Assembly (NCBI GenBank): GCA_002787175.1
Contig: PCWC01000066.1
Coordinates: forward strand, 1-29,799
Direction of reading: 5' to 3'
DNA length: 29,799 nucleotides
Source: Parcubacteria group bacterium CG11_big_fil_rev_8_21_14_0_20_39_22
GTDB taxonomy: Bacteria > Patescibacteriota > Minisyncoccia > Phycocordibacterales > GCA-002787175
Positions 16,368-18,864 of this stretch are shown one piece after another. Every line of letters starts with the position of its first letter. Position 1 is the first letter of the stretch. The translations under genes were made by a program, and so were the position numbers. The notes below the pieces were generated by a model. The model ran no database searches. It was given only the letters and a program-made list of their open reading frames with translations, and was not told the DNA's origin.

Positions 16368-17333
16368 TTACTGGATAACATCCTCAATTAATCTTCTAAC
16401 TCGTGCTCCGATCTTGTAGGTATTCCCATGTTTGCACAATCCCAAATACGACGATACATTCTTTTCATTTACCCTCATAAACATCCGCCGTTTCGTCACC
16501 GTCCGCAAAACGCGATGTGTTGGAAAATGCACCCAACCGAGGAAATCCACGCTGGAGGCAAGCGTCCGTATGTAAACCTTATCGGGATGAAGCGAAAGAT
16601 AAAGGTCATTTGATAGAAAGTCTCCCATCTTCCTCAATCGCTCCGAAAGGTAGCGCTTGTCTTGCGAGAAAATCACAAAGTCATCAGCGTAGCGTATGTA
16701 ATATTTCACTTTGAGCTTGTGCTTCACGAATTGGTCAAATTCATTCATATAGATGTTTACCAAAAGTTGCGAGGTGAGATTGCCAAGAGGAAGTCCTTTG
16801 CCTTCGCTCGTATGAAAACTGTGGGTAACATTCTCCAAAAGCCGTAAGATATCCGTGTCTGCGATATGCTTCTCCAAGATTTTGATTAAAATGGAATGGT
16901 CAATACTGGCAAAAAACTTTCGAATGTCGCATTTGAGAACATACACGGTCTTGGTGTGATTAAATGACGCGCTCCTTCCAAAATCCCGAAAGCGGTCTAA
17001 CGCTTTATGTACCCCTTTCCCCTCTCTACACGAATACGAGTCAGAGATGAATTTGGGGTCAAAGAACGGATAGAGCACTCGGTGTATAGCGTGGTGCAAA
17101 AGCCGATCTCGCACGCTCGCCTTGTGAATGTCGCGGGGCTTTGGGTCGGAAATTTTGAAGTGTTTGTAGGAGCCGTGGCGGTAGGTTTTGTTGCGTAGGT
17201 CGTTGTGAAGCATGCAAATGTTCTCACCAAGATTAAGAGCAAACTCGGCGACATCCGGCTTGTTCTTCTTGCCCGGCAAAAATTCGTTCCAGGCGATATG
17301 CAAATTTTTGAGCGATATGATATTGTCGTACAT
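16368..17333 (-). CDS. DGR reverse transcriptase (321 aa)
   Basis: KPRDIH...RDRLLHHA, KCDIRKFF.SIDH, DGR-type GLPLGNLTSQ and catalytic YIRYADD; no maturase/HNH domain; adjacent avd, TR and VR. Start set to ATG 17333 because the longer ORF overlaps avd antisense. Confidence 0.96.
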   Translation of the reverse strand: MYDNIISLKNLHIAWNEFLPGKKNKPDVAEFALNLGENICMLHNDLRNKTYRHGSYKHFKISDPKPRDIHKASVRDRLLHHAIHRVLYPFFDPKFISDSYSCREGKGVHKALDRFRDFGRSASFNHTKTVYVLKCDIRKFFASIDHSILIKILEKHIADTDILRLLENVTHSFHTSEGKGLPLGNLTSQLLVNIYMNEFDQFVKHKLKVKYYIRYADDFVIFSQDKRYLSERLRKMGDFLSNDLYLSLHPDKVYIRTLASSVDFLGWVHFPTHRVLRTVTKRRMFMRVNEKNVSSYLGLCKHGNTYKIGARVRRLIEDVIQ

Positions 17334-17354
17334 TATCCTTAATTTTTTAAAAAA

Positions 17355-17738
17355 ATGACAAGTAACTCTCTCTCTCTCTCTCTTAAATTTCCGGCAGTGA
17401 TTATGAAGATGAAGGAAGCATACCAATTCTGGCTTGCTATTCACCGCAATTTCCCAAGAGTAGAGCGAATGGGTATCGGGCAAAAGATTGAGAATAATTT
17501 TCTCTCGCTTTTGGAGATAAGTTTTGGAGCGGTCTATCTGCCTCCGGAGACAAAGGTGGTACAGCTTACGAGAGCGATCACCCATCTTGATACTCTACGC
17601 TTTTTTATCCAACTTGCGTGGGAAAGTAAACTCATCCCGATGGAGAAATATACCACGCTCATAGAGCAACTCCACGAAGTTGGACGGCAAATTGGCGGAT
17701 GGAAGAAAGGTCTGGAGCAAAAACTCCCGCGGAGATAG
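17355..17738 (+). CDS. avd: DGR accessory variability determinant (Avd, four-helix bundle)
   Basis: 127 aa with FPRVERMGIGQKIEN, LDTLRFFIQLA and EVGRQIGGWKK; sits between RT and TR on the opposite strand. Confidence 0.9.
   Translation: MTSNSLSLSLKFPAVIMKMKEAYQFWLAIHRNFPRVERMGIGQKIENNFLSLLEISFGAVYLPPETKVVQLTRAITHLDTLRFFIQLAWESKLIPMEKYTTLIEQLHEVGRQIGGWKKGLEQKLPRR
17366..17383 (+). repeat. (CT)9 microsatellite in the 5' coding region of avd
   Basis: AGTAA-CTCTCTCTCTCTCTCTCT-TAAA, encoding N-SLSLSL. Confidence 0.95.
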
Positions 17739-17744
17739 CGGGAG
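17724..17744 (-). other. Hairpin 3' of TR (spacer/terminator-like), antisense to the avd 3' end
   Basis: Minus strand CTCCCGC-tatctcc-GCGGGAG followed by TTTTT; spans the avd stop codon on the other strand. Confidence 0.65.
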
Positions 17745-17752
17745 AAACAATG

Positions 17753-17875
17753 AGTTTCGGGAGAACGAACCGATTACGGTTCTCGGCATTCCAAACGTTC
17801 TCGTTCGAGAGCGGATTCACGTTCGCCTTGCGGTTACCATCCGCGTTCCGATTCGCGTTCACGACGAAGAATTTG
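17753..17875 (-). ncRNA. DGR template repeat (TR, 123 bp)
   Basis: Ungapped alignment to 18218-18340 (offset 465) gives 106/123 identity; all 17 mismatches are at TR adenines; 11 in-frame AAC/AAT codons. Confidence 0.98.
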
Positions 17876-18202
17876 TGTGATAAACCATCCGTAGCATAAC
17901 TCGCCAAATCATGACGAAATGCGAATTTTTTGGGACATAGAAGTCCGCCAGTTTATCACACCAACTGATTGTTTTTTTAATTTTTGAAAAAATACATCCA
18001 CTCTCTTGCAAGACACTTTGTATCAAGGATACGTGTCCGACAAAATTCTCAAATGCATTCTTACACAAACATGTCACCGAAGTATTTTTACCACGATGTT
18101 ACCCATGAATGCTTTTTTATTATACAAAAATCCCTCCAACACCACAAAACTAATTTTGCAAAGTGTCAGAGGGATTGAGAGACAAAGGGTCAGAAGAGCT
18201 AA

Positions 18203-18217
18203 GTAGCCGAGGGCTAC
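18203..18217. other. Short hairpin/cruciform at the VR 3' end (candidate retrohoming cis-element)
   Basis: GTAGCC-gag-GGCTAC overlapping the target stop codon; absent after TR. DGR target recognition generally uses such a hairpin downstream of VR. Confidence 0.55.
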
Positions 18218-18864
18218 AGTTGCGGGAGAACGAACCGACGACGGTTCCCGGCAAACCAAACGCCCTCGTCCGAGAGCGGATCCACGTACGCCTTGCGGTC
18301 ACCATCCGCGCGCCGACACGCGTACACGACGAAGAATTTGCCATCCGATTTTCTTTTAACAAGGAACCGGAACCCTGCCCAACCATCCCCGCGGAGATAT
18401 TTCTCCGCTTCCCGTTCAAAAAACAGGACGATTTGGTGCTGGGTCAGACAGAGTCGCTCCAGTGGCACACCGTATCCGTCATAGATTTGACGGGATTTTC
18501 CATCGCGGATTTGCTCATCCACGACCACTTTCATCTCGAGAGTTGGTTCGTCGGGGACATTCAGTCCCTGATTGACGAAATCCCCGTCAATGAAATTCGG
18601 GAACACGTCTAGTGCACCCGCGATGGTGCGGGAGCCGTCGGTCTCGGGAATAACAACAGGTTCCGTGGAGAGTCGGCGGACAAACGGAATCGGCTTGATT
18701 TCGGCGTTGCCGTCCATAACATCCAAGACTGACGAGAGCAGTCCCGGAGTATCGGCTAAACGCTTGATTCTCTCCCCTGTCCAGTTACTTTCACGGTTAC
18801 CTTCACGGCGAAACGCCAACTTCAGCTCATTCGCCAATCCAACATCGAGCATTAGATCGCTCAT
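18214..18864 (-). CDS. DGR target protein (216 aa) with a hypervariable C-terminus, probable C-type-lectin-like fold
   Basis: The C-terminal 41 codons are the VR; AAGGA SD upstream; no obvious signal peptide or TM segment. The fold is inferred from general DGR biology. Confidence 0.9.
   Translation of the reverse strand: MSDLMLDVGLANELKLAFRREGNRESNWTGERIKRLADTPGLLSSVLDVMDGNAEIKPIPFVRRLSTEPVVIPETDGSRTIAGALDVFPNFIDGDFVNQGLNVPDEPTLEMKVVVDEQIRDGKSRQIYDGYGVPLERLCLTQHQIVLFFEREAEKYLRGDGWAGFRFLVKRKSDGKFFVVYACRRADGDRKAYVDPLSDEGVWFAGNRRRFVLPQL
18218..18340 (-). repeat. DGR variable repeat (VR)
   Basis: KFFVVYACRRADGDRKAYVDPLSDEGVWFAGNRRRFVLPQL versus TR-encoded KFFVVNANRNADGNRKANVNPLSNENVWNAENRNRFVLPKL. 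Confidence 0.98.

Follow-up and report, generated by a model that had tools for sequence, protein, structure and literature searches.

A CT repeat in the first codons of avd as a candidate contingency switch of a Patescibacteria DGR

What controls the activity of diversity-generating retroelements (DGRs) in nature is a live question, and a recent model asks under which conditions constitutive activation would be favoured in the first place (bioRxiv 10.64898/2026.02.18.706561). In Patescibacteria these elements are very common: among 401 evenly drawn genomes of this group, 160 contain a bAvd match (109 of them above the Pfam cut-off), and many genomes carry two to six matches. The locus described here raises the question in a specific form, since its avd gene carries a perfect (CT)9 repeat within the first codons, and each gain or loss of a unit would shift the reading frame of a factor on which mutagenic retrohoming may depend. 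Does this tract act as a switch on the retroelement, or is it a relic, a promoter element or a site of slippage during expression? The tract lies in a stretch of 29,799 nt (contig PCWC01000066.1), called the window throughout, which was analysed as a whole and contains the following features:

16368-17333, minus strand: DGR reverse transcriptase (RT), 321 aa (RVT_1, 1.3e-26; group II intron RT-like)
17334-17354: spacer of 21 nt between the divergent start codons of RT and avd (sequence and ORFs)
17355-17738, plus strand: avd, 127 aa (Pfam bAvd, AF2, Foldseek); full frame open only at 9 (or 6, 12) CT units
17355-17357, plus strand: upstream ATG, the likely start of full-length Avd (A/T context; MTSN N-terminus shared with the homologue P0021)
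17366-17383, plus strand: (CT)9 simple-sequence repeat, perfect (sequence reading and Tandem Repeats Finder)
17397-17411, plus strand: cluster of alternative starts, GTG 17397 (V15), ATG 17403 (M17) and ATG 17409 (M19), all in the avd frame
17724-17744, minus strand: terminator-like hairpin with T-run, GC-rich, directly after the template repeat on its sense strand and overlapping the avd stop codon
17753-17875, sense on the minus strand: template repeat (TR), 123 nt (TR/VR mismatches)
18214-18864, minus strand: DGR target gene, 216 aa, with the variable repeat (VR) at 18218-18340

The window contains a complete DGR. The RT gene stands beside a TR/VR pair, and all 17 of the 17 mismatches between TR and VR fall on a plus-strand T, which is a minus-strand A in the TR sense. 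The layout is of type B3, TR-(avd)-RT, with avd inverted between TR and RT, as in 90% of CPR DGRs (Wu et al. 2018, PMC5758913). The terminator-like hairpin behind the TR makes it probable that the TR is transcribed as a short RNA of its own, in which case RT would need a separate promoter, located within avd.

The Avd protein is a member of its family by Pfam and by fold, though under the NCBI equivalog threshold: it scores 55.2 bits against the bAvd profile (PF22296, cut-off 40, residues 18-119) and 67.1 bits against NCBIfam NF033474 (threshold 80, residues 14-118). An AF2 model shows a four-helix bundle (pLDDT 90.8), which Foldseek superimposes on the Avd of the Bordetella phage (4DWL) with a TM score of 0.88-0.92 and an rmsd of 1.5 Å. 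A PDB search with the Avd sequence profile gave no match; the fold search did recover Avd. In the model, helix 1 comprises residues 14-30, and residues 1-9 are disordered (pLDDT <50), so that the tract-encoded tail should, as modelled, tolerate in-frame changes of length. The RT of the Bordetella phage DGR is inactive without Avd (bioRxiv 10.1101/2023.10.23.563531), a dependence established for this phage only, the one DGR studied; on this precedent, the supply of Avd would gate retrohoming.

That a pure 18-nt CT repeat starts 11 nt past the A of the avd ATG and is in frame at nine units, as the earlier note had it, is borne out by the sequence and by Tandem Repeats Finder. The repeat occupies codons 4-10 of the 127-aa ORF and encodes Ser-Leu three times over. 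On the RT-sense strand it reads (AG)9 and lies 33-50 nt upstream of the RT ATG (17333, minus strand), which agrees with the distance given previously. The same note had seen no other repeat of this kind in the window, and (CT)9 is indeed the only dinucleotide array that Tandem Repeats Finder reports there; it is also the longest dinucleotide repeat of the 883,836-bp genome, in which the runner-up has 6 units. A first-order Markov model predicts about 4e-5 such tracts per genome. The tract thereby has two properties of a simple-sequence contingency locus, as it is a perfect 5' coding repeat of a short unit that is not a multiple of 3 nt, and it is longer than the genome background allows.

The tract is also real, as (CT)9 recurs in four further assemblies of the same strain (L125, L128, L129 and L130, of which L128 may be the window's own contig), and Logan contigs of the runs X1 (depth 32) and X2 (depth 90) cross it without a gap. 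The Logan contigs of the runs X3 and X4 end near the tract. Its status as a genome-wide outlier, together with its presence across same-strain assemblies, rules out chance or an assembly artefact as its origin. Searches of the 93%-complete genome for MutS_I, MutS_V and MutL (DNA_mis_repair) domains found none, and the same searches gave a match in 11 of 14 control genomes. On this result, repeats are expected to be unstable in this organism.

A frame switch of this kind presupposes that translation starts upstream of the tract. The earlier note considered ATG 17355 to be the likelier start because ATG 17403 and 17409 lie inside helix 1, and several lines of evidence agree. The match to the NCBIfam Avd profile begins at residue 14, corresponding to position 2 of the profile, and that to Pfam bAvd at residue 18, corresponding to position 6, which places the downstream ATGs within the conserved helix, and in the AF2 model a start at M17 would delete the first turn of helix 1. 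Many homologues carry an N-terminal tail of similar length that ends in P-x-V-[IL], for example MTSN...PAVIL in P0021. Upstream of M17, the Pro codon of this segment is CCN in 64 of 72 related loci and the Val codon GTN in 57 of 72, with all four wobble bases in use at either codon. Such freedom at the wobble position of conserved codons indicates that the segment upstream of M17 is translated, and translation must then cross the tract.

Shine-Dalgarno motifs could not be used to rank the candidate starts, and this approach was dropped, since the 372 long ORFs searched show no such signal upstream (12% SD-like versus 14% background). Starts were ranked by A/T context instead, because gene starts in this genome are preceded by A/T-rich sequence (mean 74%, genome 61%). 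The 20 nt before ATG 17355 are 90% A/T, the 95th percentile of the genome's gene starts, and the values for GTG 17397, ATG 17403 and ATG 17409 are 55-65%, the 8th-30th percentile. ATG 17355 is thus likely to be the ancestral and best-placed start of full-length Avd. The conserved Val codon was also considered as the true start and rejected for the family as a whole, as it reads GTA, GTT, GTC or GCG in 51 of 72 loci; in the CT clade, where it reads GTG, it may serve as a start.

The reading to which we incline, with slightly better than even confidence, is that avd carries, in the part encoding its N-terminal tail, a simple-sequence contingency repeat, which would gate or tune the DGR. Full-length Avd would be translated from ATG 17355 and through the tract, read as a disordered Ser-Leu tail, with helix 1 following from residue 14. 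Slippage at replication would lengthen or shorten the tract in steps of 2 nt and cycle the gene through its three frames. At 9 (or 6, 12) units, the ATG would be fused to avd and the 127-aa Avd produced; this 'on' state is that of the window. At 7 or 10 units, a frame of 13-15 codons would end at a TGA overlapping the GTG of V15, after which re-initiation could yield no more than a shortened Avd (low or off), while at 8 or 11 units a TAA directly behind the tract would end translation (off). The supply of Avd would then gate or tune mutagenic retrohoming, and only part of the population would diversify the target protein. Two parts of this scheme are ones that we infer: the rate of slippage with reversible switching within a population, and the step from reading frame to Avd level and DGR activity.

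Natural variation at the tract was assessed in about twenty related contigs, recovered by protein-identity lookups and a scan for the flank pattern. No close copy turned up when 60 relatives among the GTDB species genomes were searched at the DNA level, and the flank-pattern scan of viral contigs gave no match. The recovered alleles are as follows:

Window strain (window, L125, L128, L129, L130; at least 99.9% DNA identity): (CT)9 in 5 of 5
L126/L127 type (L126, L127; Avd the same as in the window from M17 on, 96-98% DNA identity): (CT)7
L004 type (L004, identical to L131, and L132-L136; about 91% DNA identity to the window): (CT)7 in all
L137 (avd called from the inner Met): (CT)7
L001 (about 84% DNA identity to the window): (CT)7
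L003 (Avd from M17 the same as in L001, P0001): (CT)7
L002 (Avd from M17 the same as in L001, P0001): CCCC(CT)8
L087 (76% Avd identity to the window): (CT)5

Lineages at 72-98% DNA identity thus differ in tract length (5, 7, 9 or the equivalent of 10 units), and the frame differs with it: within the (CT)n clade the upstream ATG is in the avd frame only in the window strain, and (CT)5, (CT)7 and CCCC(CT)8 are out of frame. In the out-of-frame alleles, the ATG opens a frame of 13-15 codons whose TGA stop overlaps the GTG of Val15 and lies 2 nt before the ATG of Met17; in the 7- and 10-unit alleles this TGA is the equivalent of window positions 17398-17400. L002 and L003 show no mismatch over 829 nt, and their sole difference is a 6-nt indel at the tract, which keeps the frame. 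Within strains, the consensus length is constant, with 9 units in 5 of 5 assemblies of the window strain and 7 units in all 10 assemblies of its two nearest strains (seven of the L004 type, two of the L126/L127 type, and L137); as contigs hide minority tract lengths, this constancy is one of the consensus only. The claim that gain or loss of a CT unit frameshifts avd as an ON/OFF switch therefore holds in one respect, since the tract lengths of sister lineages do shift the frame, and is weakened in two others, in that the consensus length is invariant within strains and inner starts allow a graded output.

The avd gene is under strong purifying selection, the out-of-frame lineages included, with a dN/dS of 0.06-0.08 at a dS of 0.21-0.46 in comparisons of 9-unit with 7-unit lineages and of two 7-unit lineages with each other. 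In the 7-unit lineage L001, moreover, the VR differs from its own TR at TR adenines only. The avd genes of out-of-frame lineages are thus in use and not dead. This finding bears on a rival explanation, namely that the tract is a lineage-fixed relic of an ancestral poly-C switch. Translation of Avd would then begin at GTG 17397 or ATG 17403 through coupling with the stop codon that ends a short upstream ORF, and nine units would merely fuse that ORF to avd. Purifying selection and a diversified VR in 7-unit lineages would fit such a relic, as would the fixation of (CT)7 in four diverged lineages and in all ten assemblies of two strains, next to (CT)9 in all five of the window strain. The stop-start overlap (GTGA, with an ATG 2 nt further on) is likewise conserved across the CT clade, L087 included, and the homologues P0002, P0007 and P0010 are annotated with a start at the V/I position. 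Gene callers place the start of the 7-unit alleles at M17.

Several observations run counter to the relic. The repeat is perfect and uninterrupted, and about 37 nt of its flanks are conserved at a dS of about 0.4, which is unexpected for a decaying sequence. The A/T context of the inner starts is poor, a start at M17 costs the first turn of helix 1, and the P-x-V segment upstream of M17 is conserved as protein throughout the family. At the level of single codons, the 13 nt that follow the tract give conflicting evidence, too little of it for a decision: two of the changes between the window and L087 are synonymous in the upstream-ORF frame and none in the avd frame, a count based on four changes only, and the one change in the 7-unit allele of L127 is synonymous in the avd frame, at the codon of Pro13. 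On balance, the relic is rather unlikely, and the contingency repeat is the reading preferred here.

The same alleles nevertheless suggest a modification of the contingency repeat. As the TGA of the upstream frame overlaps GTG 17397 and precedes ATG 17403 by 2 nt, a shortened Avd is possible and the switch may be graded. The sequence GTG-ATT-ATG at this stop is kept in the CT clade, L087 included, and found in no other clade; judged from its arrangement, it would suit stop-start coupling, by which 7-unit alleles may still make Avd. 'Off' may thus be leaky in the CT clade owing to its inner starts. (CT)7 is common to four lineages whose DNA differs by up to 16%, and the 8-unit frame was never observed in the CT clade, which indicates either that the tract is less mutable than assumed or that the 7-unit frame is itself favoured.

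The flanks of the tract (17355-17365 and 17384-17408; 12 nt on the near side of the ATG and 25 nt on the far side, 37 nt in all) are the same in all (CT)n loci at 84-100% identity, with the exception of a G-to-T change in L127, in contrast to the body of avd with its dS of about 0.4. This near-invariance shows an extra constraint on the flanks, perhaps from reading in two frames or from the RT leader. Several related DGR-bearing strains occur in the same groundwater samples: in X1 and X2, a second strain coexists with that of the window and differs from it at 45 positions in 471 nt (window 17530-18000), accounting for about one quarter to one third of the total depth.

The earlier note had also proposed a survey of Avd 5' ends in CPR DGRs for simple-sequence repeats and frameshifts, and this survey places the tract in a wider family. 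It covered the 80 nearest Patescibacteria avd loci in species-representative genomes, 77 of which could be assessed. Of these, 60 of 77 (78%) carry a repeat in the stretch from the upstream ATG to the P-x-V segment, mostly C7-C12 and also (AC)5, (AG)8 or (AG)13. Near the avd 5' end, 61 repeat matches were observed where 7.5 are expected from the loci themselves. The position of (CT)9 is that of the poly-C tract in at least 55 relatives, in which avd likewise stands head to head with RT. The longest repeat at the site is a (GA)23 tract of 46-47 nt (L047:1-47), located at one end of a 1.6-kb contig from a bin labelled Holophaga, where the frame is not assessable; this contig is probably a mis-binned Patescibacteria DGR.

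Where a tract is present, the reading frames across this family are random. The upstream ATG shares the frame of avd in 16 of 55 such loci, no different from one third (p = 0.57), as against 14 of 17 tract-free loci (Fisher p = 1.5e-4, with the reservation that related loci are not independent); two of the three out-of-frame tract-free loci are anchoring errors. Among 39 out-of-frame loci, 22 have no start-like codon at or just past the Val codon. Length variation is also seen at short range, as the members of one tight clade, with near-identical Avd proteins, have C8, C9, C10, C10, C11 and C11.

In a maximum-likelihood tree, poly-C is spread over the whole family (53 of 76 rows) and surrounds the four CT loci, which group as a single clade (support 100/99). 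The next relatives of the CT clade, L138 and L139, carry C10, and their first four codons are the same as those of L087 with its (CT)5. The shared codons and the nesting of the CT clade indicate that the type of repeat was exchanged in place while the site stayed slippery. At the locus of P0105 (L138-L140), the tract is C10 in two samples and C9T in the third, and, with the upstream frame broken, the only avd call there is one of 89 aa that begins at an inner Met. Phylum-wide, among the 30 best Pfam bAvd loci, a tract is present in 9 (30%); it is thus a feature of certain Avd clades and not universal.

This distribution invites a stronger proposal, on which our judgement is evenly balanced: that the tract is a selected second-order mutator switch, a hypermutable repeat gating a hypermutation machine. 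It would have been kept for its mutability in about three quarters of this Avd lineage, hence the replacement of poly-C by CT, AG, GA and AC, and diversification in these ultra-small bacteria would be bet-hedged in subpopulations while most cells stay locked.

A different role for the tract follows from its position between two divergent genes. In this second rival explanation, phase variation is transcriptional: the tract would alter promoter spacing or the leader and so set the transcription of RT (and avd), not the avd frame. With 21 nt between the start codons, the RT promoter or leader must indeed fall in the 5' region of avd, the terminator-like hairpin after the TR suggests that RT needs a promoter of its own, and the RT leader is unusually unstructured (z = +1.95). 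The suggestion in the earlier note that the tract may alter the RT promoter did not find support in a promoter scan, whose single -35/-10-like match (minus strand) is what chance predicts and has a -10 that overlaps the RT ATG. Family-wide, moreover, the repeat is always flanked by an upstream ATG on one side and the coding P-x-V segment on the other, its length tracks the reading frame, and poly-C, CT, AG and AC would not be interchangeable as a sequence-specific promoter element. Transcriptional control through the tract is therefore regarded as improbable.

The excess of out-of-frame alleles could also be accommodated by slippage during expression. RNA polymerase or the ribosome would then slip on the tract, every allele would yield some Avd, and the tract would set a low constitutive level and not a heritable state. 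Out-of-frame alleles are in the majority, yet avd is conserved, and the C9-C12 runs of relatives could support polymerase slippage or +1 shifting at CCC-C. We know of no case, however, in which RNA polymerase or ribosomes slip at a dinucleotide CT repeat. The family contains alleles in all three frames, more than a shift in one direction could rescue, and the window contains no element resembling a frameshift stimulator. The RNA folds are no more structured than shuffled controls in any case examined (avd leader with 9 units, z +0.55; with 7 units, z +0.30; RT leader, z +1.95). The same result leaves unsupported the idea that a hairpin hides the inner starts. Expression slippage is the least probable of the explanations considered, and we regard it as very improbable.

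The contingency repeat, which remains the preferred reading, has its nearest described case in mechanism, by analogy, in the CT repeat of H. pylori oipA (also hopZ and sabA), a perfect repeat just past the start codon in which the number of units shifts the frame; in oipA, slipped-strand mispairing alters the number of units and thereby switches expression (PMC10564699). The H. pylori genes encode surface adhesins and their switching was demonstrated experimentally, whereas the gene gated here would be the accessory factor of a mutagenic retroelement, its switching is inferred, and inner starts may make 'off' leaky. To our knowledge, H. pylori is without MutS/MutL-type repair, a further likeness to the genome of the window, in which none was found either. 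In H. influenzae, TA repeats between the -35 and -10 elements of the divergent hifA/hifB promoter act on transcription. That system shares with avd a dinucleotide repeat between two divergent genes; the avd repeat, in contrast, is inside the reading frame, and no promoter could be placed on it.

Within the DGRs themselves, the closest parallels are the poly-C avd loci of other Patescibacteria, with the tract at the same site, the same divergent layout of RT and avd, and random frames. The window differs from them in its dinucleotide unit (2 nt per step), a Ser-Leu instead of a Pro tail, an allele that is in frame, and an added GTG/ATG at the stop of the upstream ORF. It thus adds to this group a dinucleotide variant, an allele in the 'on' frame and a clade whose 'off' frames may be leaky. 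Outside the surface genes of classical pathogens, coliphage genes are described as carrying hypermutable contingency repeats for bet-hedging (PMC12633550); these repeats are not described as gating a second mutagenic system. A repeat or frameshift in avd is not mentioned in two large DGR surveys (Wu et al. 2018, PMC5758913; Roux et al. 2021), and a full-text literature search for work linking DGRs or Avd to phase variation, slipped-strand mispairing or contingency repeats found no paper.

If the avd tract does act as a stochastic and heritable switch, this would explain how a population can both explore and retain variants of a target protein. It would also account for the many avd genes that seem 'broken' in assemblies, with their starts mis-called at inner codons, and for the scoring of many intact DGRs as inactive in activity surveys. 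For annotation, an avd gene with a 5' repeat should not be labelled as a pseudogene or as truncated.

A further repeat was noticed elsewhere in the window's own genome, where a 2.6-kb contig contains a G15 run 12 nt upstream of an ATG (C85:411). The matching locus on another contig (C66:5320) has C7-ACA-C6 instead of G15, and the G15 locus may represent a second length-variable homopolymer, located in a 5' leader or promoter.
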